This document shows positions 1-32,000 of a stretch of 32,000 nt of DNA, piece after piece (position 1 is the stretch's first letter; each line of letters begins with the position of its first letter). The translations under genes and the position numbers were made by a program. The DNA comes from Chlamydiota bacterium (GTDB lineage Bacteria; Auribacterota; JACPWU01): contig JACPWU010000021.1 of assembly GCA_016196885.1 (NCBI GenBank), forward strand, positions 51,038 to 83,037. Reading direction: 5' to 3'. The notes beneath the pieces are model-generated. The model was not told the origin of the DNA, ran no database searches, and worked only from the letters and a program-made list of their open reading frames with translations.

Positions 1-764
1 TCTTTCTTCGATAGATTGTGGTTCTTCATCGTTTCTTCCACTTCTTGAACGAGCGTTGACTCATCCAAAGAAGAAACATGGATCTCTTCCTCTTTAAAAC
101 CCTGAACAACCAATACAAATTCTCCTTTGAGATTTTTTAAATCCAACCGGGAAAGAATCTCTTTCAGAAAACCCCTTTCGAAAGTTTCAAACTTTTTGGT
201 CAATTCTCTGGCAACCGTGACCTTTCTATTTCCAAAAATTTCGAAAAGATCTTTAAGACTTTCTTTGATCCGGCGTACAGATTCATAAAAAATCAAAGTC
301 CTTGGCTCTGCTTTCAAATCCATGAGAAATTTTCTTCTGGCCATTTTTCTCTCTGGCAAAAATCCCTCGAAGGCAAAGCGATGAAGCGGCAATCCTGAAA
401 TCGTCAAAGCCGTCAAAAAAGCGGCAGGCCCCGGAATAGCAAAAACGGGAATCTGATGCTCAATGGCAAGAGCGATCACTTTAAAACCCGGATCCGAAAT
501 CCCGGGTGTTCCGGCATCGCTCACCAAGGCAATGTCTTGTCCTTGCCGAAGACGCTCGATCAAATCAAGGGAACGAGACTTTTCATTAAAATCGTGACAA
601 CTGACGAGGGGCTTGTGAATATCATATCTTTGGAGGAGCTTACTCGTTTGGCGTGTGTCTTCACAAGCAATCAGGGTGACCTCTTTCAAAATCCTCAGCG
701 CCCGCAAAGTAATATCCTCTAAGTTTCCAATGGGAGTTGAAACAACATAAAGCGTTCCGGACAT
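1..764 (-). CDS. rsmI: 16S rRNA (cytidine1402-2'-O)-methyltransferase RsmI, C-terminus cut by window edge
   Basis: Absent from ORF track because it runs off the left edge. Hand translation from ATG 764..762 gives MSGTLYVVSTPIGNLEDITLRALRILKEVTLIACEDTRQTSKLLQRYDI...VSDAGTPGISDPGF...RTLIFYES, the RsmI/tetrapyrrole-methylase signature. The frame stays open to base 1. Confidence 0.85.
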   Translation of the reverse strand, partial: MSGTLYVVSTPIGNLEDITLRALRILKEVTLIACEDTRQTSKLLQRYDIHKPLVSCHDFNEKSRSLDLIERLRQGQDIALVSDAGTPGISDPGFKVIALAIEHQIPVFAIPGPAAFLTALTISGLPLHRFAFEGFLPERKMARRKFLMDLKAEPRTLIFYESVRRIKESLKDLFEIFGNRKVTVARELTKKFETFERGFLKEILSRLDLKNLKGEFVLVVQGFKEEEIHVSSLDESTLVQEVEETMKNHNLSKK

Positions 765-772
765 AGATCGCC

Positions 773-1885
773 TCAAGCCTTCTTGAAATACCCTTGTGCA
801 AACTGAATTCTTCTGTGAATACTCGGATGATCATAAAGAAAAATTTCCACCCAGCGGGGTGGATTCATTTCGGAGAGATTTTGCTCGGCCAATTTCTTCA
901 TGGCCCGAGTAAAGGCATCTACATTTCGGGTCTGGTCTAAAGCAAATTGGTCCGCCTGCTTTTCTAATTTCCGAGAATACCCATTTTGAAAAGGCATCAA
1001 CAAAAGTGAAAAAAGAAAAAGGATTAAAAGAAGGATCGGCAGCCCTGCAACGTCGGCAATTCCATTCAGATGAAGGGTTAGAATCAACCGCCCTAAAAAT
1101 TGAGAAGCACAAAAAAATCCCGAAAGACTTGCAAAAAGTCCCAACGTCATCAGCCGCCAAAGATGACGATGGTAATCATGTCCCAATTCATGCGCCAAAA
1201 CCACTTCAATTTCATCTGGCGAAAAATGTGTAATCAAAGTATCCCCCAAAATAATTCTCTTAGAACTTCCGAGCCCCGTACACATGGCATTCGCCTTTTT
1301 AGTCTTTCGACTCATGTCCATTTGAAAAACGCCCAGCACCTTCACGCCCGCGCGATGGGCCAAAGCCTTCAGTTTTTCCACCAAAGAAGAATCCTTGAGT
1401 GGCTCCACCTTATAAAAAAGCGGCAAAATCAAGGTCGGGGTAATCCGCCCTAAAATCACCGTGAAAAGAAAATAGAAAAAAGAGGCAAAAAGCCACCATC
1501 CATGAGGAAACGCCCTCAACAAAATGTAAATGACCTCAACAGAGATAAGAGAAAAAATCAAATTTAAGAAAAAACCCTTCACTCCATCCCACAACCACTG
1601 GAGAAAACTCTGTTTAGACAGCTTAAAATAATGCTCCACACGAAACGCAGCATACCCTAAAGGAAAGGCAATCATCGTCATTAAAATTATAAATACACCC
1701 ATATATAATGCGTTTTTTACATAAAAATTGGGAAAGTAACTATAAATAATACTTAATAAATTAAAAGAACATCCACTTATTTGGAAAAAAAGCAAAAATA
1801 GAAGAAAAATAAAGAGGTTAGCCATAAAAAATAACCTCTTTATTTTTGCATAACTTTTTGACTTAGAATGAGTTTCTTTTTCCAT
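773..1885 (-). CDS. M48-family (Ste24/HtpX-like) zinc metallopeptidase, polytopic membrane protein
   Basis: 370-aa ORF with several hydrophobic segments, HEXXH motif in LAHELGHDYHRH, and a C-terminal YDHPSIHRRI motif typical of Ste24-type M48 peptidases. ATG confirmed at 1885..1883. Confidence 0.85.
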   Translation of the reverse strand: MEKETHSKSKSYAKIKRLFFMANLFIFLLFLLFFQISGCSFNLLSIIYSYFPNFYVKNALYMGVFIILMTMIAFPLGYAAFRVEHYFKLSKQSFLQWLWDGVKGFFLNLIFSLISVEVIYILLRAFPHGWWLFASFFYFLFTVILGRITPTLILPLFYKVEPLKDSSLVEKLKALAHRAGVKVLGVFQMDMSRKTKKANAMCTGLGSSKRIILGDTLITHFSPDEIEVVLAHELGHDYHRHLWRLMTLGLFASLSGFFCASQFLGRLILTLHLNGIADVAGLPILLLILFLFSLLLMPFQNGYSRKLEKQADQFALDQTRNVDAFTRAMKKLAEQNLSEMNPPRWVEIFLYDHPSIHRRIQFAQGYFKKA

Positions 1886-3830: not shown

Positions 3831-3839
3831 CGATCTATT

Positions 3840-3855
3840 AGTTCCACGTGGAACA
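3840..3855. promoter_or_regulatory. parS: parS centromere-like site (AGTTCCACGTGGAACA)
   Basis: Matches the ParB-binding consensus TGTTNCACGTGAAACA in 14/16 positions (15/16 if the N is allowed symmetrically in the right half). The 14-bp core GTTCCACGTGGAAC is a perfect palindrome. Lies about 100 bp upstream of parA. Confidence 0.75.
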
Positions 3856-3978
3856 AAATAATGATACATGGCTTATACAAAAGAAAGCAAGATTTTTGAT
3901 GAGCAAAATTAAGAAATCCGCCTTTTTTATTGTGGGTGACTCTGAAAGGGTCCCTCCAAGTTATTCTGGAAATTGATT

Positions 3979-4034
3979 GTAGTCGCCCCATTTATGGGGC
4001 CATGCATGGATTGCCCGATAAATCGGGCGACTAC
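3979..4034. repeat. REPIN-1: inverted doublet of GTAG-headed 22-nt REP units
   Basis: GTAGTCGCCCCATTTATGGGGC (3979-4000), a 12-nt spacer, then the reverse complement of GTAGTCGCCCGATTTATCGGGC (4013-4034). Confidence 0.8.
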
Positions 4035-4098
4035 GCTTGACGGATCAAGAATACTTGAGCCAAGTCCATATGCCAAAATTTATTTCTCCGACAGGCTC

Positions 4099-4280
4099 CT
4101 AGCCCGCATTTCTCATCAGATTTCGTCGCGAGTCCGCCTAAGGTGGATTGGAGGGGAGGTTGCACGACTGAGGCCATGCGAGGCATACCTTACAGTATGT
4201 TGAGCGTGGCCGACCGAGTCTGCACGGAGGGACGAAGCGGAATCGGAGAAGAGCGGCAGAAATCTGACGAGAAACGGCCA
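4099..4280. repeat. Copy A of a roughly 180-nt structured repeat (degenerate closing stem)
   Basis: Shares long identical blocks with 29182-29367: cccgcatttctcatcagatttcgtc, cgagtccgcctaagg, gccatgcgaggcatac, gttgagcgtggccgacc and gaatcggagaagagc. The termini are inverted repeats. Confidence 0.65.
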
Positions 4281-4317
4281 TGACTTTCAGTCACAAAGGG
4301 GGATGAAAATCACCCTT

Positions 4318-4362
4318 GTAGTCGCCCCATTTATGGGGCTGCCCGATGAATCGGGCGACTAC
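4318..4362. repeat. REPIN-2: inverted REP doublet, same orientation as REPIN-1
   Basis: GTAGTCGCCCCATTTATGGGGC, a 1-nt spacer, then the reverse complement of GTAGTCGCCCGATTCATCGGGC. Confidence 0.8.
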
Positions 4363-4421
4363 AAGTAATCATAACTTATTGTATAAAAATAAGTAAAGAC
4401 TATTTTCAGATGAAACGCGGG

Positions 4422-5113: not shown

Positions 5114-5149
5114 TTAAATGTTTTGTTCCACGTGGAACAAAACATTTAA
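5114..5149. promoter_or_regulatory. parS: 36-bp perfect palindrome containing parS (TGTTCCACGTGGAACA at 5124-5139)
   Basis: ttaaatgttttgttccac|gtggaacaaaacatttaa is fully self-complementary. The central 16-mer differs from B. subtilis-type parS TGTTCCACGTGAAACA at one base and fits TGTTNCACGTGNAACA. It abuts the stop codon at 5150. Confidence 0.85.
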
Positions 5150-8609: not shown

Positions 8610-9278
8610 TTATTTTGAGGCAATACTAACATCCTTGATTACTTGGGGCAGGTATAAATTCATCCAAGAGGTTTGTTTCTGAGAAAGAACCTCTTTTGTC
8701 CCAATACCCTTTGTCATTTCAAAACAGCCATTCATTTGAATTAAGAGTTCACGGACCTCTAAGCTTTCTGAAAGATTCTCCAAGGCCTTTCTAAATTCAC
8801 TCGGGTAACTCGCATGAAGAAGGCATAGGTCATAAATATCTGTAGGTTCAATTCGATCCACAACACAATAGAGTTTCTCCAGGATCATGTCTTTTTCAGA
8901 TAAAATCGGGCACCGAAGTTCGGGCTCATAAAGCAATGTGACCGGACGCCAAATTTTTCCAATATCGACTTTTGTTTCAAGTTTGGGATATCTGATATAC
9001 AGTTGACAGAAGTGTTCTCCACGACGCGTAATTCTATATTTAACCTTCTCAAGATTACACTGCTTCACAAGCTCAAGCATCGCCTTGTAACTAGAGATTT
9101 CTTCTTTCGGGGAGAGAATATCTACGTCCTTACTGTTGCGCGCATGTTGTGGAAGTCTTAAGGTTAGCCACGTTCCTCCCGAGAGGGCATAATTTTTACG
9201 GATGAGCGGACATTTTAAAATCCATTTGGCAAGTGATAAAATATCTTGCCTTGAAGGCTCTTCAGGCATTTTTTTCAT
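8610..9278 (-). CDS. AbiEii/AbiGii-like nucleotidyltransferase (putative type IV TA toxin)
   Basis: N-terminal ALSGGTWLTLRL.....RNSKDVDIL resembles the GGTAL...R.S.D(I/L)D motif of DUF1814/AbiEii nucleotidyltransferases. Overlaps the upstream HTH gene by 17 nt. Confidence 0.65.
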   Translation of the reverse strand: MKKMPEEPSRQDILSLAKWILKCPLIRKNYALSGGTWLTLRLPQHARNSKDVDILSPKEEISSYKAMLELVKQCNLEKVKYRITRRGEHFCQLYIRYPKLETKVDIGKIWRPVTLLYEPELRCPILSEKDMILEKLYCVVDRIEPTDIYDLCLLHASYPSEFRKALENLSESLEVRELLIQMNGCFEMTKGIGTKEVLSQKQTSWMNLYLPQVIKDVSIASK

Positions 9279-9666
9279 AAAGACCTCGAATCAGACTTTT
9301 GCGAAAAATTCTTTCAAGAAGGGTTCTTCCTTTGCGCACATATTTTTCCGCCACAGACCTTTGAATCATTTTAGGAATGAGTTGTGGGGCACGCCTAAAA
9401 AGAATGGGAATCATTTCTTCTTTCGATGGGATTGATTGTTCTCTCCAGAAGATTGAATAGGGAGCTATTTTTTGAGGTCTTCCAGAGGAATAGTGTCCTT
9501 GAATTTTTTTAAAACGATCGAAAGAAGCTAATGGAATAAACCAGGTATGTCCCTTTTTCAAACATTGCTTCAAGCGCTTTTCCCGGCAATATCGAGCCAT
9601 CAAGGACTTCGTAATTCCTAATCTTGCCGCTGCCTCAGTGGCTGTTAAGAAAACATTCTTCATCAT
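9262..9666 (-). CDS. Excisionase/MerR-like HTH protein, putative antitoxin partner
   Basis: From Met48/49: MMKNVFLTATEAAARLGITKSLMARYCREKRL (HTH_17-like). The 47-aa N-terminal extension in the track is made of repeat-containing intergenic sequence. Confidence 0.55.
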   Translation of the reverse strand: MMKNVFLTATEAAARLGITKSLMARYCREKRLKQCLKKGHTWFIPLASFDRFKKIQGHYSSGRPQKIAPYSIFWREQSIPSKEEMIPILFRRAPQLIPKMIQRSVAEKYVRKGRTLLERIFRKSLIRGLYEKNA

Positions 9667-9822
9667 GATTTTATTATACACTATTTTGAACAATTTTTGA
9701 AAAATTTTGGGATGGTAGACTTTGGTCAAATGGACTGGATTTGATTCGGGAATTTTAAAGGTTAAAGATTTTAAGTATTTTAACCCTTGGACGTTTGAAC
9801 TTTTCAACCCTTAAACTTTTTT

Positions 9823-12024: not shown

Positions 12025-12257
12025 CTTGCTAAGATCGTGTATTTAAAAGTGTGTCCTTTTATGGATGCGGGTGGCCCGACTGGGGGTCCCCCGCTGATCG
12101 CCAGCAGATGGAGAACATGGACCTCTCGTTACATTCAAAACCCAACCGACATCGACCCCACGGGGGCTATAACCTCTGTGCCGTCAGCGGGGGTGAGGAG
12201 GGACAGGACCCGCCTCCTCTTAAAAGGACACACTTTTAAATACAGCATCCTTGCTAA
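12025..12257. mobile_element. MITE-like 217-bp GC-rich palindromic element (12033-12249) with 8-bp direct repeats CTTGCTAA
   Basis: 24-bp perfect terminal inverted repeat, 12038-12061 with 12221-12244, extending to 29 bp with 2 mismatches. Inner helices gcgggt/acccgc and cccccgctga/tcagcggggg. Exact CTTGCTAA at 12025-12032 and 12250-12257 abuts both ends. Confidence 0.65.
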
Positions 12258-14170: not shown

Positions 14171-14260
14171 AATAAGTGAAAAATGAAAAGTGAACAATGA
14201 AAATTTGCCAAGAACTTTAACGAAATTCACTTCTTATTCTTAATTTTTCATTCTTAATTT
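14171..14260. repeat. Tandem 7-nt-unit repeats forming an imperfect hairpin between yidD and yidC
   Basis: gtgaaaa/atgaaaa/gtgaaca/atgaaaa at about 14176-14203 faces ttcacttcttattcttaatttttcattcttaattttt at 14226-14262. The complementarity is partial. Confidence 0.5.
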
Positions 14261-16429: not shown

Positions 16430-16480
16430 GAAGACCCTTTCAAAATCCAAAATTTTCTCACGCAATGATCTTGGGAACAT

Positions 16481-16530
16481 TTTAGATTTTGATCTGTCAT
16501 TTTGATTTTTGCATTTTGATTTTTGATTTT
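16481..16530. repeat. Tandem 7-nt T-rich units (TTTTGAT-like) between pilB and pilC
   Basis: ttttgat/ctgtcat/tttgatt/tttgcat/tttgatt/tttgatt. Shares gtcattttgatttttg with 26047-26062. Confidence 0.7.
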
Positions 16531-16531
16531 A

Positions 16532-18226
16532 CTACGTCTCCTTCACCACTTCTTCAAAGGTTGTCAGCCCATCATAAAGCTTTAGCAGGGCGTCTTCCCT
16601 CAGCGTTCTCATGCCCAGTTCTCGAGCCTTTTGTTTTAGGAAAACCGCCGGGGCCCGTTCCAAGATGAGCTGGCGGATGGGCTCTGTCACCCGTAAGATT
16701 TCATACGCCGCCGTCCGTCCACGATAGCCTGTTTTATTGCATTGGGGGCATCCCTTGCCCTGATAAAATTGAATGCCTCGAATCTGTTCAGGGTTTAAAT
16801 TTAATTGCTCCATAAAATGTTGTCCAGGAGTGATGGCCTCCTTACAATTTTCACAAATTTTTCGGACCAATCGCTGTGCAATGGCGGCCTCCAAAGTGGA
16901 GGTGATGAGAAAAGGTTCCACCCCCATGTCCACAAGCCTCGTGATGCATCCGGCGGCATCGTTTGTGTGGAGCGTGGTGAAAACCAAATGGCCGGTGAGA
17001 GAGGCCTGAACGGCGATTTGAGCCGTTTCAATGTCGCGAATCTCGCCCACCATGATGCGATCGGGATCCTGTCTTAAAATAGCCCTTAAGGCTCGGGCAA
17101 AGGTGAGCCCAATTTCACTTTTCACTGGAATTTGCATGATGCCATCAATTTCATATTCTACCGGGTCCTCTGTGGTAATAATTTTGGAATCAATCGAGTT
17201 CACTTTCTTGAGACAAGAATAAAGCGTGGTGGTTTTTCCGCTCCCCGTGGGCCCTGTGACAATGACGATGCCGTTGGGTTTTTCAATCATTTCCTCAATC
17301 ATTTTTAAATGATCTTCACGAAGACCCAATTGATTTAACTCCAGAGAGACAACGGTTTTGTCTAAAATTCTCATCACAATGCTTTCGCCGAACTGAGTCG
17401 GAAGGGAAGACACGCGCAGATCCACATTGCGGCCTGAAACATTGAGTTGAATGCGGCCATCTTGGGGAAGCCGCCGCTCAGCAATGTCCATATCGGCCAT
17501 TACCTTGATGCGAGAGGTCATGGCCAAACTCAATCGTTTGGGAGGTGGAACCATTTCATAAAGGGCACCATCCACGCGGCAGCGCACCTTAAATTCTTTT
17601 TCAAAAGGTTCCAAATGAATGTCGCTTGAGCGATCCTTAATCGCCTGAAGCAAAATTAAATTGACCAATTTGACAACCGGTGCCTCCCGGGCCAATTCTT
17701 GAAGGCTCGCTACATCCACCGCCCCCGATTCTTCCTCGGCTGTGGCTGTGACCTGAGCATCAATTTCTCCCAAAAGTTCATCCAAAGACTCTTCGGCCTC
17801 ACCATAATATTTGTCAATGGCCGCAAAAACATCTTCTTCAGAGCTGATGACGGCATGAATTTCACAGCCCAAAAGAAATCGCAAGTCATCCAAAATGGTT
17901 GGATTGAAGGGATCTGCCATGGCGACCGTTACGTCATGCCCTCTGGCACGAATAGGGAGTACCCCGTAGAGCTTGGCCGTAGAAGGGCTGATGGTTTTAA
18001 TCACTTGGGGAGGAATGTCAAGCTCTTTGAGATGGACCGTTTCCATGCCTAAGCGCCGACCGAGGGCCTGAAAAACTTCCTCTTCTTTCACAAATCCAAA
18101 ATCCACCAGGGCTCGGCTGACAGATTTTCCAGTTCGGACATGCTCCTCCCGCGCCTCTTGCAATTGTTGAGGCGTCACCATGCCTTCTTCCAGCAAAATT
18201 TTTTCCAAGGGGTCTAGGTCACTCAT
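16532..18226 (-). CDS. pilB: GspE/PilB-family assembly ATPase (paralog 1)
   Basis: N-terminal T2SSE_N/MshEN-like domain, Walker [11 protein letters not shown], Asp and His boxes, tetracysteine CENC...CPQC. Confidence 0.9.
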   Translation of the reverse strand: MSDLDPLEKILLEEGMVTPQQLQEAREEHVRTGKSVSRALVDFGFVKEEEVFQALGRRLGMETVHLKELDIPPQVIKTISPSTAKLYGVLPIRARGHDVTVAMADPFNPTILDDLRFLLGCEIHAVISSEEDVFAAIDKYYGEAEESLDELLGEIDAQVTATAEEESGAVDVASLQELAREAPVVKLVNLILLQAIKDRSSDIHLEPFEKEFKVRCRVDGALYEMVPPPKRLSLAMTSRIKVMADMDIAERRLPQDGRIQLNVSGRNVDLRVSSLPTQFGESIVMRILDKTVVSLELNQLGLREDHLKMIEEMIEKPNGIVIVTGPTGSGKTTTLYSCLKKVNSIDSKIITTEDPVEYEIDGIMQIPVKSEIGLTFARALRAILRQDPDRIMVGEIRDIETAQIAVQASLTGHLVFTTLHTNDAAGCITRLVDMGVEPFLITSTLEAAIAQRLVRKICENCKEAITPGQHFMEQLNLNPEQIRGIQFYQGKGCPQCNKTGYRGRTAAYEILRVTEPIRQLILERAPAVFLKQKARELGMRTLREDALLKLYDGLTTFEEVVKET

Positions 18227-23597: not shown

Positions 23598-24752
23598 CTA
23601 TAAAAATTTTTCAGTAAAAGAGGAAAAGTTCTTCAACGTTTTCACAACCTCCTCGTAGCCCCAGATCTCACAATGGGCCTTGGGATATTTTTTACTGAAA
23701 GGGAGAACACCCCGTCCTTTCGCAAGTTTAATTCCTGACTTTATCTCGAAGGCAAAAAGACCTCTCGATGTTTTTAAAACATAGTCTACTTCGTCATTGC
23801 CTTCACGCCAATAAAAGAGTTCGCTGTTGGGAATGCTTGCCAAGTGGGCCCCAACCACGGATTCAAAAACATGGCCATACCACAGCGGATCTTCGTCTAA
23901 ACGATTTTCAGATTGGTAGGCGTGGATCAGGGCTGGATTGAGGACAACGATTTTGGGGCTGGATGCCTTCGTTTGAATCGGAGTACCGCTGTATTTTTGC
24001 AGTGCTCGAATCAAAAAACTTTTTTCCAAGAGCAGCAAATAATGTTGAATGGTCGTTGCGTTGCCGCGATCTTGAAGTTGTCCCAACATCTTTTGAAGAC
24101 TGATGATTTTTGCAGGATGTTGCATGGCCAACTCAAAAGTCTGTCGAAAGAGGGCCGGTTTTTGAACAGGGTGAAGACCTAAAATATCTCGACCCAACAC
24201 AGGCTCAATAATGCTGTCCAAAATGTATTTGCGCCAGCGGGATTTGTCTTGAATAAAACCTGTAGCACCCGGATAGGCCCCAAAACGAAAATAAGTTTCG
24301 AAATTCCACCCGAAAACGCTGTGAAATTCCTCATAAGACCAATGGGGAGCTTCAATCAACTCGAAGCGTCCGGATAAGGACTCTGTTAGCCCTTTTTGAA
24401 GATAGAGACTGGAAGAACCCAGAAAGACCACTCTGAGGTCTCTTTTCCCGCGGTCCTCATCAAAAAGAATTTTGACCTGTTCGCTCCAGGACGGAATCTT
24501 CTGGATTTCATCTATGATAAGAAGGGTTCCATCTCCTCTCTGCCTGGCTTTTTCCCAAGAAAATCGAACCCAATCTGGGGTTGGAGGAGAAGGTAAATCA
24601 GCGCTAACCATGAATTTAGGTCCTGCCCATTCATCAAAAATGGCTTTTGCCATCGTTGTTTTCCCTACCTGCCTGGGGCCTAGGAGAACCTGAATCAAGG
24701 GATTTCTTTCTCTTATCCTTTCTGAAAGAGTGAGATATAATTTTGTTCTCAT
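23598..24752 (-). CDS. AAA_14/DUF4143-type ATPase with C-terminal PD-(D/E)xK-like motif
   Basis: Walker A LLGPRQVGKTT, Walker B LLIIDEIQ, and C-terminal DEVDYVLKTSRGLFAFEIKSG. Confidence 0.85.
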   Translation of the reverse strand: MRTKLYLTLSERIRERNPLIQVLLGPRQVGKTTMAKAIFDEWAGPKFMVSADLPSPPTPDWVRFSWEKARQRGDGTLLIIDEIQKIPSWSEQVKILFDEDRGKRDLRVVFLGSSSLYLQKGLTESLSGRFELIEAPHWSYEEFHSVFGWNFETYFRFGAYPGATGFIQDKSRWRKYILDSIIEPVLGRDILGLHPVQKPALFRQTFELAMQHPAKIISLQKMLGQLQDRGNATTIQHYLLLLEKSFLIRALQKYSGTPIQTKASSPKIVVLNPALIHAYQSENRLDEDPLWYGHVFESVVGAHLASIPNSELFYWREGNDEVDYVLKTSRGLFAFEIKSGIKLAKGRGVLPFSKKYPKAHCEIWGYEEVVKTLKNFSSFTEKFL

Positions 24753-24810: not shown

Positions 24811-24943
24811 TAGGCATATGCACTTGATTCCCCTAGTAGTCGCCCGATTCATCGGGCAATCCATGCAAGGGGCACAAGGCTGCCCCATAAATGGGGCGAC
24901 TACAAATTCTTGCTATCTGAGGGGAATCAAGTGCATATGCCTA
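24811..24943. repeat. Nested palindrome: 24-bp perfect outer inverted repeat enclosing REPIN-3
   Basis: taggcatatgcacttgattcccct (24811-24834) pairs with aggggaatcaagtgcatatgccta (24920-24943). The right arm overlaps the last tsaD codons. Confidence 0.8.
24836..24903. repeat. REPIN-3 (inverted relative to REPIN-1 and REPIN-2, 24-nt spacer)
   Basis: GTAGTCGCCCGATTCATCGGGC, a spacer, then the reverse complement of GTAGTCGCCCCATTTATGGGGC. Confidence 0.8.
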
Positions 24944-25956: not shown

Positions 25957-25977
25957 GAATGAAAAGTCTACCTTGGT

Positions 25978-26067
25978 AAAATCAAAAATCAAAATGACAA
26001 ATCAAAATTAAAAATGAGGCAGGGTATTATTTTTAATATTTGCATTGTCATTTTGATTTTTGATCTT
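25978..26067. repeat. Long hairpin with tandem 7-nt arms (AAAATCA units) spanning the ctpA stop
   Basis: 18-bp perfect pairing, 25981-25998 with 26047-26064, plus ttaaaaat/atttttaa nearer the loop. Confidence 0.8.
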
Positions 26068-27265
26068 TGATCTTTGATTTTAAAACATCCATGGCCGCTT
26101 GAAGCTGACGATCCGGAAAAACAGATTTCTTTTTGCCCGCTTTGTTCTCCTCGCGCCTTTGTTCCTTCATCTTCTTTCTCTCCTCGCGAGGGATGTCAAC
26201 TTCTATGTCCGGTTGAATGCCTGTTCCTTGAATGGATCGGCCTTTCGGAGTAAAGTATTTAGACGTGGTTAATTTCAAGGCCGAGCCATCTTTCAAAGGA
26301 ATAACGCTCTGAACAGATCCTTTCCCAAAGGTTTTTTTACCCACAATTTTTCCTCTTCCCAAATCTTGAATCGCCCCCGCCACAATTTCAGAAGCACTGG
26401 CGCTCCCTCGATTCACCAAAATCACAAGCGGCACATCGCTCACCGGTCCACGCTTCGCTTCAAAGCTCAAATTCTGACTGGGCTTTCGTCCTCTCGTTTC
26501 CACAATCAAGGAACCCCTTTTCACAAAAAGCTCTGTCACTTCCACCGCCGATTGCAAAAGGCCGCCAGGGTTATTGCGAAGGTCCAGAATCAATCCTCTC
26601 CATTCTCCCTGAGCCTGGGAATCCTTCATCACCTTCTCCAAATCCTGAGCCGTATGTTCTTGAAATTCAGAAATGCGCACATAACCAATGCTGTCTTCCA
26701 TCATTTCAAAAGCTGAAATGCTCTTAATTTGAATCACGGCCCTTTCAATGGTAAATTCCAAAAGTTTCTTTCCCTCCCTCATAATAGAAAGTTTCACACG
26801 GCTTCCCACTCGGCCTCTCAAGCGCTTAACCGCCTCCTCCAGATTCAAATCTTTAATCGCCTTATCATCAATCCTAACAATGCGATCGCCCGATAAAATC
26901 CCAGCGGTCCAGGCGGGGGTCCCTTCCATCGCCGCAATGACGGTGAGAAAATCGTCCTTCATCGTAATCTCAACGCCCAGCCCTCCGAACTGGCCCTCCG
27001 TCTCCACTTGAATCTCCCGATACGCCTCGGGATCTAAAAACTGGCTGTGCGGATCCAAAGACCTCAACATCCCTTTCAAAGCCCCATAAATCAGCTTCTG
27101 CGGCTCCACCTCATCCACATAGTCCCGCTGGACCAAGGCCAAGCCATTCGCAAAAAGATCCAGATTGTCATAAATATCTTTGGACGCCACTTGCTGACTG
27201 TTCTTGGCCCAAGCTAGGACAAGAATCGCCGCACCCAGGAGGCTCATCCACTTCATGTATTTCAT
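26048..27265 (-). CDS. ctpA: Carboxy-terminal processing protease (S41 family)
   Basis: Signal peptide, PDZ segment (GLGVEITMKDD...GDRIVRIDD), and catalytic region RGSASASEIVAGA...TFGKGSVQ. Confidence 0.9.
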   Translation of the reverse strand: MKYMKWMSLLGAAILVLAWAKNSQQVASKDIYDNLDLFANGLALVQRDYVDEVEPQKLIYGALKGMLRSLDPHSQFLDPEAYREIQVETEGQFGGLGVEITMKDDFLTVIAAMEGTPAWTAGILSGDRIVRIDDKAIKDLNLEEAVKRLRGRVGSRVKLSIMREGKKLLEFTIERAVIQIKSISAFEMMEDSIGYVRISEFQEHTAQDLEKVMKDSQAQGEWRGLILDLRNNPGGLLQSAVEVTELFVKRGSLIVETRGRKPSQNLSFEAKRGPVSDVPLVILVNRGSASASEIVAGAIQDLGRGKIVGKKTFGKGSVQSVIPLKDGSALKLTTSKYFTPKGRSIQGTGIQPDIEVDIPREERKKMKEQRREENKAGKKKSVFPDRQLQAAMDVLKSKIKDQKSK

Positions 27266-28775: not shown

Positions 28776-29181
28776 TTATGAATACTCACAGCCGATATTT
28801 TTTTCCAGAGGATAAGTCTCCTTCCCAGGATAGACAATCCAAATGTGCTCGAGGGTAAGTTCTTCAATCGCTGATTTCATGGACTTGGTGACCTTTGGGG
28901 TATCTGAATATTTTATTTCAATACCGAAGGGCTTTCCATTTTTGAAAAACAGAAGATCCAATTCTGCTCCCGTATGAAGGGCCCAGAAAAAAAGTTCTTC
29001 TTCTCTCAAACGAAGGAGCCTCGCGACCTCTTCCATGGCAAAACCTTCCCAGGAGGCGCCCAGTTTTGGATGATTGAGAAGATCATTCAAACAAGCGACT
29101 CCGAACCTTGTGAAACAAGATGACGGAAGGCGCTTCCCAGAATAAAATATTTTGTGGAATTATGGGCGTCTGCAAGCACTC
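28776..29181 (-). pseudogene. 5'-truncated, frameshifted remnant of a DUF4143-type ATPase
   Basis: C-terminal part LNHPKLGASWEGF...AELDLLFFKNGKPFGIEIKYS is paralogous to 23598-24752. The preceding segment NSTKYFILGSAFRHLV lies in a different frame. No Walker-A region is present upstream, where repeat copy B and suhB lie. Confidence 0.7.
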
Positions 29182-29367
29182 TTAACCCGCATTTCTCATC
29201 AGATTTCGTCACGAGTCCGCCTAAGGCGGATTGGATGCGAGGAAGACGCTCCGCGCCATGCGAGGCATACTTTGAAGTATTGTTGAGCGTGGCCGACCTC
29301 TCTTGCGACGCCAGACGAGGCAGAATCGGAGAAGAGCAGCAGAAATCTGATGAGAAATGCGGGCTAG
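29182..29367. repeat. Copy B of the roughly 180-nt structured repeat (intact 22-bp closing stem)
   Basis: cccgcatttctcatcagatttc (29186-29207) is perfectly complementary to gaaatctgatgagaaatgcggg (29342-29363). Internal hairpin gagtccgcc-taa-ggcggatt, and gccatgc/gcgtggc pairing. Confidence 0.7.
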
Positions 29368-30504: not shown

Positions 30505-31745
30505 ACCCCAGTCATCTATGCATGAGTGCTTATTCAAGCCTCATATATTATCGTACGGGGGCAGTTCCCTAATCAAATCGCAGAATCGTGAAGGCGCAAT
30601 TTATGCTGCCAACCGACTAGACCCCTTCGAGGGTAAAGACCTGAGTAAGAATTCCTGATATGGCTTTTCATTTTTCATTACGCCGAACACAACCTCCGCA
30701 ATTTTACGCGCAGTCGCAATTCTGGCGCGATCCCATCCTGCCTTTTCTTTGATTCGTTCATAGTACTGGCTGAAATAAGGGGAAGTGGCCGGCGCTCTTT
30801 GAGCCGCCTCCACAAACGCCCATCGCAGCCATTTATTGCCTTGTTTGGTAATACCTCCATGGCGTGTTTTCCCGCCCGAGGAAAAAGTGCTTGGAGCCAA
30901 ACCCGCATAGCCCACCAACTTTTTTGCTGAAGCAAATCTATCGATTTCATCAATCTCATAACGAATTAATATTGCAAACGTATCACCAATTCCTGGAATG
31001 CTTTTTAGAATTCTACAAATAGAATCTTCCTTGACATGATTCCGAGTCCATAGATTGGCTCTCAGAATTTCCTTGTGAAGGTGTTCTAGTATTCCCAGCC
31101 ATGATTTGAGTATTTCTGTGTCGTCTCCGGGCAGAACAACTTTAGTCAGAAGTTCCAATCCCTGCTTCCCAAAAATATCCGATAATTGGGCAAGCGTTTC
31201 TTTTTCTAAAAATACATGCTGATCCAGGAGCGCGTGAATCTTGTTTTTGATTTGTGTGCTTAGGGCTGTCAAGGCTGCTCGATATCTCAAATAACTCTTA
31301 ACCTGTCTTGTCTCCTTTCCAGGAATATAAGACAAAGGCAGAAAGTTGGTTCTGAGTAAATCCGCCAGTGCTTTGGCATCAATGTGATCCGTTTTGATTC
31401 TTGCCTCTGCGATGAGCTTTGTTTTCAGGGGATGCGCTAGAGAAATTTCATCGGCAACTTCTCCCAAAATGTCCATGTAGTATCCCCAGTTATAGCAGGC
31501 TTCCATGGCGATGTGACATGGCTCATTAACCTTTTCAAAATAATTTTTAAGAGCCTGTGGGTTGCTGTCTATTTTCGCCCGATCGATCATTTTCCCTTCC
31601 TTATCCATCACCGCGCTGATACAATATTTCTTGTGGATGTCGAGTCCAACGTAGTACATAAGCGCCTCCTTTTGGTTGATGTTTTCTAACACCATTCATC
31701 ATATCAGGGTGGCGCTTATTTTTTCATGGTATCAAATCTCCTGTT
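30505..31745 (-). mobile_element. IS110-family insertion sequence (ends not resolved)
   Basis: Single transposase ORF. The left flank is limited to at most 88 bp by the neighbouring stop codon at 31748. The right boundary was chosen where T-rich native-looking repeats end. The coordinates are approximate. Confidence 0.5.
30601..31659 (-). CDS. IS110-family (DEDD) transposase/recombinase
   Basis: MYYVGLDIHKK N-terminal DEDD motif and C-terminal GLAPSTFSSGGKTRHGGITKQGNKWLR. AGGAGG lies 5 nt upstream of ATG 31659, so the track start 31695 is unlikely. Confidence 0.9.
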   Translation of the reverse strand: MYYVGLDIHKKYCISAVMDKEGKMIDRAKIDSNPQALKNYFEKVNEPCHIAMEACYNWGYYMDILGEVADEISLAHPLKTKLIAEARIKTDHIDAKALADLLRTNFLPLSYIPGKETRQVKSYLRYRAALTALSTQIKNKIHALLDQHVFLEKETLAQLSDIFGKQGLELLTKVVLPGDDTEILKSWLGILEHLHKEILRANLWTRNHVKEDSICRILKSIPGIGDTFAILIRYEIDEIDRFASAKKLVGYAGLAPSTFSSGGKTRHGGITKQGNKWLRWAFVEAAQRAPATSPYFSQYYERIKEKAGWDRARIATARKIAEVVFGVMKNEKPYQEFLLRSLPSKGSSRLAA

Positions 31746-31747
31746 GC

Positions 31748-32000
31748 CTAATTATTAAGTTCGTTCATCAGGATCTCTACCTTTTTTGCAAATATTCTAT
31801 CATTCGCTATTCTCTCCCTCACATTCTTACAATGCCAGCCGATGGTCTTGTAACTTCTCACCCTAAATTTCTCGGCGACTCTGGCTTGGTTAAGATTGCA
31901 CAGTTCGCATGCTAAATAAATGGCCAATTGTCTAGCCTCATTCTCCCGCCCCCTAATCCCTTTTTCAAGCTCTTGTCGATTGACTTTATACCTTCTCCCG
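31748..32000 (-). CDS. C-terminal DnaA-C-like HTH domain of a gene continuing beyond the window
   Basis: Not in the ORF track. Hand translation gives GRRYKVNRQELEKGIRGRENEARQLAIYLACELCNLNQARVAEKFRVRSYKTIGWHCKNVRERIANDRIFAKKVEILMNELNN, then stop at 31750..31748. The pattern ARQ(L/I)A(I/M)YL...L..(I/V)...F.....(T/S)(I/V)..... matches DnaA domain IV. Confidence 0.6.
   Translation of the reverse strand, partial: GRRYKVNRQELEKGIRGRENEARQLAIYLACELCNLNQARVAEKFRVRSYKTIGWHCKNVRERIANDRIFAKKVEILMNELNN

Follow-up and report, generated by a model that had tools for sequence, protein, structure and literature searches.

Bacterial MITEs, including Correia/NEMIS, ERIC, RUP, Nezha, and the Tn3-derived TIMEs, are short, non-coding, and intergenic, fold into a long stem, carry terminal inverted repeats that derive from those of an autonomous element, and vary in presence between relatives. 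Two structured RNAs are of a similar size, approximately 180 nt. The 6S RNA forms a rod with a long terminal stem and a central bubble, while the bridge RNA is located in the non-coding flank of an IS110 recombinase gene and carries two programmable internal loops that match the target and the donor. Insertion sequences of the IS1380 family have ends that start with CC, and short direct repeats have been reported to flank them, such as the 5 bp of IS1247 (PMC3281130). The IS1380 transposases serve as a prokaryotic outgroup, or sister, to the piggyBac superfamily, which targets TTAA (PMC10813416) and to which the eukaryotic piggyBac elements and their MITEs belong.

A repeat of approximately 185 bp, found twice in a 32,000-nucleotide stretch of Chlamydiota DNA (the window), has features of each of these systems. 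With the IS1380 insertion sequences, such as the pKF715A element and IS1247, it shares an identical terminal sequence (CCCGCATTTCTCA), the CC at the start of the ends, and short flanking repeats, which in the two full-length elements compared here (L012 and L013) are CTAG on either side. It differs from them in its length, the missing transposase gene, a terminal repeat that reaches 22-26 bp, and an interior that does not detectably resemble the subterminal regions of L012 and L013. It resembles the bacterial MITEs in all of the features listed above, but its central hairpin is kept across phyla by compensatory change, which goes beyond typical MITE descriptions. A limited full-text search of the literature found no report pairing MITEs with IS1380 parents. 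The likeness to piggyBac and its MITEs includes the related transposase superfamily, ends that begin with CCC, and flanking tetranucleotides with a TA core (TTAA in piggyBac; CTAG, TTAA, or TTAG here), although the host is a bacterium and CTAG is preferred rather than strictly TTAA. Finally, the size and the long terminal stem recall the 6S RNA, and two variable segments in a conserved scaffold recall the bridge RNA. Unlike either RNA, the repeat has no Rfam match, is built of a terminal-repeat stem and a central hairpin, has no association with a recombinase gene, and ends in transposon ends.

Taken as a whole, the repeat is very probably a MITE with IS1380-family termini. It is short (less than approximately 500 bp), non-coding, and bounded by terminal inverted repeats, its ends match those of a transposase-encoding autonomous element, and it shows a presence/absence polymorphism.

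Two copies of a short intergenic repeat

The two copies, A and B, were found in direct orientation at the positions described in the initial annotation (Table 1), with lengths of 182-186 bp. All five exact runs that had been described as shared between them were verified, with lengths of 25 nt (CCCGCATTTCTCATCAGATTTCGTC), 15 nt (CGAGTCCGCCTAAGG), 16 nt (GCCATGCGAGGCATAC), 17 nt (GTTGAGCGTGGCCGACC), and again 15 nt (GAATCGGAGAAGAGC). The two internal blocks said to differ wholesale between the copies were also real, and were mapped in both as V1 and V2. Outside of these blocks the copies are approximately 90% identical, and approximately 85% of the interior is conserved at this level, whereas the similarity inside V1 and V2 is that expected at random. 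The terminal repeat of copy B is a perfect 22 bp. In copy A the right arm has decayed, while its left arm shows 100% complementarity over 26 nt to the right arm of copy B.

Table 1. Positions of the two copies and of their parts in the window
Feature	Position	Strand	Sequence or detail
Copy A of the putative MITE	4099-4280	+	nhmmer against the family profile, E = 1.6e-50
Left flank, copy A	4099-4102	+	CTAG
Left terminal repeat, copy A	4103-4124	+	
V1, copy A	4160-4172	+	TTGCACGACTGAG
Central hairpin, copy A	4173-4210	+	
V2, copy A	4216-4230	+	GAGTCTGCACGGAGG
Right terminal repeat, copy A (decayed)	4259-4277	+	GAAATCTGACGAGAAACGG
Copy B of the putative MITE (complete)	29182-29367	+	nhmmer against the family profile, E = 1.2e-51
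Left flanking tetranucleotide, copy B	29182-29185	+	TTAA
Left terminal inverted repeat, copy B	29186-29207	+	CCCGCATTTCTCATCAGATTTC; pairs perfectly with 29342-29363
V1, copy B	29243-29254	+	AAGACGCTCCGC
Central hairpin, copy B	29255-29293	+	GCCAUGC-GAG-GCAUAC-loop-GUAUUGU-UGA-GCGUGGC
V2, copy B	29299-29313	+	TCTCTTGCGACGCCA
Right terminal inverted repeat, copy B	29342-29363	+	GAAATCTGATGAGAAATGCGGG
Right flanking tetranucleotide, copy B	29364-29367	+	CTAG

The sequence had initially been judged unlikely to be coding, and this was borne out: the reading frame is shifted between the copies, and the NCBI annotation has no gene called at the element. The single open frame that runs through it was searched against the protein collection in the hope of mis-called open reading frames at other copies, and no homologues were found.

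The window is a chromosomal origin-proximal region of an environmental Chlamydiota, and its genes include parA, parB, mnmG, mnmE, yidC, type IV pilus ATPases, a Na/Pi transporter, an S41 protease, and suhB. Both copies are intergenic. Copy A lies between parA and a 218-aa ORF and is antisense to its neighbors, while copy B lies between a fragment of a DUF4143 gene and suhB and is in the sense orientation. These unrelated settings counted in favor of the MITE reading. The copies are 25 kb apart in the 41 kb examined, which combined the window with the 9 kb beyond its start (contig L002). No further copies were found in the window, in these 9 kb, or in 50 kb of related Chlamydiota loci, and no IS1380 transposase was found in the window or in L002. 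Both the count of two copies in 41 kb and the lack of an IS1380 transposase in the window weigh against the MITE reading.

Termini shared with IS1380-family insertion sequences

A 20-mer from the right terminal repeat of copy B identified five real relatives in JGI metagenome contigs (L007, L008, L010, L011, and L012); the terminal-repeat matches in two additional contigs, L006 and L009, were rejected as chance matches in coding sequence. One of the five relatives, the soil metagenome contig L012, contains a complete insertion sequence with a 504-aa transposase (NCBIfam transpos_IS1380, E = 2.5e-115; Pfam DDE_Tnp_1_4, E = 7.5e-154), whose ends read CTAG followed by CCCGCATTTCTCATCAGATTTG on the left and TGAGAAATGCGGG followed by CTAG on the right. 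Its closest plasmid relative, at 57% identity, is the annotated IS1380-family element L013 of the Pseudomonas putida plasmid pKF715A, with CTAG and CCCGCATTTCTCACAG at one end and CTGTGAGAAATGCGGG and CTAG at the other. The same terminal sequence is present at both ends of L012 and of L013, as in the window element, and the first 13 nt of the left repeat of copy B match the left ends of both. Since L012 and L013 share these ends, the closing stem is a terminal inverted repeat that belongs to a subgroup of IS1380. An autonomous element with a matching subterminal interior was not found, which is a point against the MITE reading. Searches of the viral contig and plasmid collections yielded no copies in either, and a 38-nt query from the left end returned weak or solo matches alone in plasmids.

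In the proposed mechanism, both copies would derive from, or mimic, an insertion sequence of the IS1380 family. They are short and non-coding and would be non-autonomous, and approximately 22 bp of IS1380-type end bounds each of them. The perfect closing stem described initially is formed by the two terminal inverted repeats. A cut-and-paste transposase of the DDE type would be supplied in trans, and YTAR would be its 4-bp target-site duplication. An IS1380 transposase may have mobilized the element in this genome.

This origin of the closing stem bears on a different proposal in the initial annotation, namely that the two copies are paralogues of a free-standing RNA gene of the 6S type or of a programmable guide type, with variable blocks that specify targets. 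The rod-like size, the stable fold, and the conserved scaffold with two replaced blocks would suit such an RNA, but its stem would then coincide with an IS1380 terminal repeat. Additionally, Rfam, including the 6S families, returned nothing relevant for the whole window at gathering thresholds, for copy B at E <= 10, or for L003, L007, L008, and L010 at E <= 1, such that the GC-rich relatives were without a match as well. Searches for promoters and terminators at A and B revealed no shared or consistent site, and no gene for a partner protein is consistently adjacent.

A ribozyme was also considered for the terminal repeat, which contains the hammerhead-like sequence CUGAUGAG...GAAA. It was ruled out, as CUGAUGA and GAAA do not enclose a stem II, the arms form a perfect duplex with one another, and the Rfam hammerhead models gave no match.

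Short relatives at unrelated sites

Unrelated metagenomes contain elements of 140-190 nt that have these ends and whose interior is related, and a Terriglobia genome also carries one; the family reaches both environmental Chlamydiota and Acidobacteriota. Against the family profile, the relative in L010 (approximately 185 nt) scored E = 1e-46, that in L008, which is truncated by the contig end, E = 6e-41, and the shorter one in L007 (approximately 141 nt) E = 9e-14, while L011 retains one end only (E = 2e-19). In the Terriglobia MAG (L003), the profile matches the terminal repeat alone (E = 1.1e-06). This contig has an exact 26-nt match (GAAATCTGATGAGAAATGCGGGCTAG) to the right repeat of copy B with the CTAG that follows, and a partly matching left end, CTAGCC...GCATTTCTCA, approximately 190 nt upstream. 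The relatives were collected with the terminal-repeat pattern rather than with the central-hairpin pattern, GCCATGCGAGGC...GTTGAGCGTGGC, which had no match in the genome or metagenome contig collections. Their sites are in different phyla and at non-homologous locations, which also counts against a free-standing RNA gene.

Two of these contigs carry other elements beside the relative. In L008, an IS4-family transposase gene (324-1760, minus strand; NCBIfam transpos_IS4_1, E = 1.3e-68) adjoins the MITE relative and is probably an independent insertion. In L003, two copies of a GC-rich hairpin repeat, GCGCCGGGAYGAGTCCCGGCGCGGC..., are located at 2440-2660, inside and just past the MITE-like element, and this repeat looks like a separate REP-like family.

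All of the flanks examined fit the pattern YTAR. CTAG was found at both ends of L012, L013, L007, and L003 and at the left end of copy A, TTAA at the left end of copy B and in L011, and TTAG in L008 and L010. The flanks of copy B are unequal (left TTAA, right CTAG), which speaks against a clean duplication at this copy, and the flanking repeat of L010 is 7 nt rather than 4 nt. CTAG is palindromic and, without an empty site, is indistinguishable from an extension of the terminal repeat. The flank variants remain within YTAR rather than being random, which points to target choice with a 4-bp duplication over such an extension. YTAR is most simply read as a putative 4-bp target-site duplication.

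Gene order at the locus of copy B

The suhB locus was compared with the Chlamydiota contigs L014, L015, and L017. In L014 and L017 the gene order is epimerase, small ORF, and suhB, where the small ORF abuts or overlaps suhB, while in L015 the epimerase and suhB are kept with no gene called between them. A 127-aa ORF in the window is a homologue of this small ORF (E = 6e-19). In the window, the approximately 680 bp between the 127-aa ORF and suhB consist of the DUF4143 fragment and copy B, and neither the terminal-repeat 13-mer nor the family profile detected an element in the L014, L015, and L017 loci. By this comparison copy B appears to be an insertion at the locus, with presence and absence seen at the level of gene order among distant relatives (SuhB 61-64% identical). 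The absence of the element from the syntenic locus is a further point against a resident 6S-type or guide-type RNA gene. Together with the IS1380 ends and the scattered relatives flanked by YTAR, it favors the MITE with terminal inverted repeats of 22-26 bp, which the initial annotation had considered to fit equally well.

The DUF4143 fragment is a 104-aa ORF (28776-29090, minus strand) that matches only the C-terminal end of DUF4143, and is hence a gene fragment. It lies between the conserved small ORF and copy B, is absent at the syntenic loci of the related Chlamydiota, and is weakly similar to a full-length AAA_14/DUF4143 gene at 23598-24752. The fragment may mark a rearrangement junction. 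The non-syntenic DNA to the left of copy B and the mismatched flanks of this copy would fit a conjectural recombination between two MITE copies. In addition, a Logan assembly contig from another run (L001) starts inside the right terminal repeat of copy B, as is expected for repeated DNA.

An IS110-family transposase gene (30601-31695, minus strand; DEDD_Tnp_IS110 and Transposase_20) is located 1.2 kb from copy B. This proximity, along with the resemblance to bridge RNAs, would be accounted for if the repeat were an orphan bridge or seek RNA of this recombinase, with the two blocks as target and donor guides. Such an origin is scarcely credible. The suhB gene separates the repeat from the recombinase gene, and the repeat is in neither flank of the latter. 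Copy A is 26 kb away from the gene, and the relatives L007, L008, and L010 have no IS110 gene nearby. The ends of the element are those of IS1380, V1 and V2 flank a single hairpin instead of forming two separate internal loops, and no match of V1 or V2 to the ends or the insertion site of the IS110 element itself was seen.

Directly upstream of the IS110 gene, an ORF at 31748-32000 (minus strand) that runs off the window end has a weak DnaA_C-like helix-turn-helix match (E = 1.8e-5, below the Pfam cut-off). The matching NCBI contig JACOUD010000001.1 (GCA_016178005.1) ends inside the IS110 gene, at approximately window position 31656 by coordinate arithmetic, which suggests that the assembly breaks at an insertion sequence present in several copies.

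Predicted fold and the central hairpin

Folding reproduced the secondary structure that had been proposed initially, including the closing stem of copy B, the 8-bp hairpin, the GCCAUGC/GCGUGGC helix, and the change of a G-C pair to a G-U wobble in copy A. The fold is much more stable than that of shuffled sequences in both copies, with z = -4.5 in A and z = -6.1 in B. Owing to G·U pairs, the plus strand of copy A folds better than its minus strand by approximately 12-13 kcal/mol. The predicted structure is multi-branched and includes the central hairpin, unlike the 6S rod with its central bubble. Only the terminal-repeat stem and the central hairpin are common to A, B, L008, L010, and L007. 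P2, the 8-bp hairpin near the left end, is missing in L007, and L008 and L010 have not conserved it.

The internal hairpin was correct as first described, and compensatory changes in the relatives strengthened it. Its motif is RCRUAC-loop-GUAYGU followed by YGAG. Across the five sequences, 88% of the cells in the hairpin are paired, compared with 26-45% when the partners are slid by 1-3 columns, although in the shuffle controls 52-138 of 500 shuffles reached the observed values, which is not significant. Four pairs change on both sides, for example from A-U to G-C in L008 and L007, and two pairs vary from G·U to G-C and from G·U to A-U, which is compatible with pairing on the plus strand alone. 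The full-length IS1380 elements L012 and L013 lack the motif. The linker motifs are kept in GC-poor as well as in GC-rich hosts. The conservation of the interior between A and B and the compensatory and strand-specific changes in the central hairpin amount to a constraint beyond what transposase binding alone would demand of a MITE, and they speak against a plain MITE.

In the MITE reading, selection for mobility would have kept the ends and the central hairpin, along with a small number of linker motifs. That the interior is a strand-specific structured module, made of the central hairpin and the linker motifs, acting as RNA or single-stranded DNA and selected from Chlamydiota to Acidobacteriota, seems unlikely. 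The related view that the MITE also carries a functional single-stranded module, which would act as RNA or single-stranded DNA on the plus strand of the element, is if anything slightly less probable. Its parts would be the central hairpin and the flanking motifs GAGG...YGAG, CGACC, and AGACGAGGC.GAAUCGG, and a processing site, a transposase regulator, or a small RNA exapted by the host are possible roles. The paired cells and the four two-sided changes speak for such a module, as do the single-sided G·U changes that fit the plus strand only, the better fold of copy A on this strand, the presence of the motif in all five short sequences but not in L012 and L013, and the linker motifs kept across hosts. 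Against it stand the small number of sequences with shuffle controls short of significance, the failure of P2 to be conserved in three relatives, the lack of a shared promoter or terminator and of an Rfam family, and the opposite orientations of copies A and B relative to their neighbors.

Variable blocks

The two variable blocks of each copy had also been described as sharing a short motif. In a comparison of the longest common substring with shuffles, this stood at a nominal p = 0.017 for copy A but not for copy B (p = 0.16), and the corresponding values were p = 0.37 for L008 and p = 0.19 for L010. In copy A, the TGCACG motif includes the self-complementary TGCA. Duplex energies between V1 and V2 were no better within copies than between copies, and were matched by 6% of the shuffles for copy A and by 27-33% for copy B, L008, and L010. 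The idea that V1 and V2 co-vary as partners, or that they carry a repeated guide motif, was rejected, as energies and substrings are at chance except weakly in copy A.

The relative in L008 is a mosaic, in which V1 begins like that of copy B and ends like that of copy A, while V2 begins like that of copy A. This mosaic points to old sub-lineages and recombination rather than to programmed guides. V1 and V2 are most simply taken to be spacers free of constraint, set between the constrained modules of an old family. Copies A and B would then belong to old, diverged sub-lineages, and their V1 and V2 would have drifted, or would have been shuffled by recombination between lineages. With no Rfam match, no consistent promoter or terminator, and no guide-like covariation in the blocks, the interpretation as a 6S-type or guide-type RNA did not hold up, and we regard it as very improbable.

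Other repeats and genes in the window

A second MITE-like family was found at 24811-24943, with partial copies at approximately 3950-4080 and 4290-4370. It has perfect 24-bp inverted repeats (TAGGCATATGCACTTGATTCCCCT) that surround a palindromic core, GTAGTCGCCC(C/G)AT..ATGGGGC / GCCCGAT.AATCGGGCGACTAC. As core-only or decayed copies of this family flank copy A on both sides, this region is a nest of small repeats. In addition, a perfect palindrome with 23-bp arms, TTAAATGTTTTGTTCCACGTGGAACAAAACATTTAA, is located at 5114-5149, upstream of the 218-aa ORF, and its core, TTGTTCCACGTGGAACAAAA, recurs upstream of parA at 3838-3858; this looks like a shared operator site and is a candidate for one.

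AT-rich arrays of TTTTGATTTTTG-type units occupy two intergenic stretches, 16478-16538 and 25976-26089. The units are present in direct and inverted copies of 37-59 nt with 78-87% identity, and shorter relatives are found at 14234 and 30453. A pair of 34-nt inverted repeats at 12028-12254 (GCTAAGATCGTGTATTTAAAAGTGTGTCCTTTTA), 88% complementary and 159 nt apart, may be another small inverted-repeat element. Between mnmE and mnmG, a gene for an AbiEii-like nucleotidyltransferase toxin and an HTH_17 gene are inserted (8610-9807, minus strand).

Implications

For annotation, these results provide a clean label for a repeat that is easily mistaken for a novel guide RNA. For genome finishing, assembly breaks and rearrangement junctions in this MAG are likely to lie at these elements. 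If the interior did prove to be a selected module, the element would be a small functional nucleic acid that rides on a bacterial piggyBac-like transposon or is required by it, beyond the two ends that bind the transposase. The analysis documents a MITE family tied to IS1380, whose members are related to piggyBac but bacterial. The TTAA and CCC of piggyBac have their parallel here in the YTAR flanks and the CCC ends, and efforts to trace the evolution of target choice in this superfamily may benefit from the comparison.
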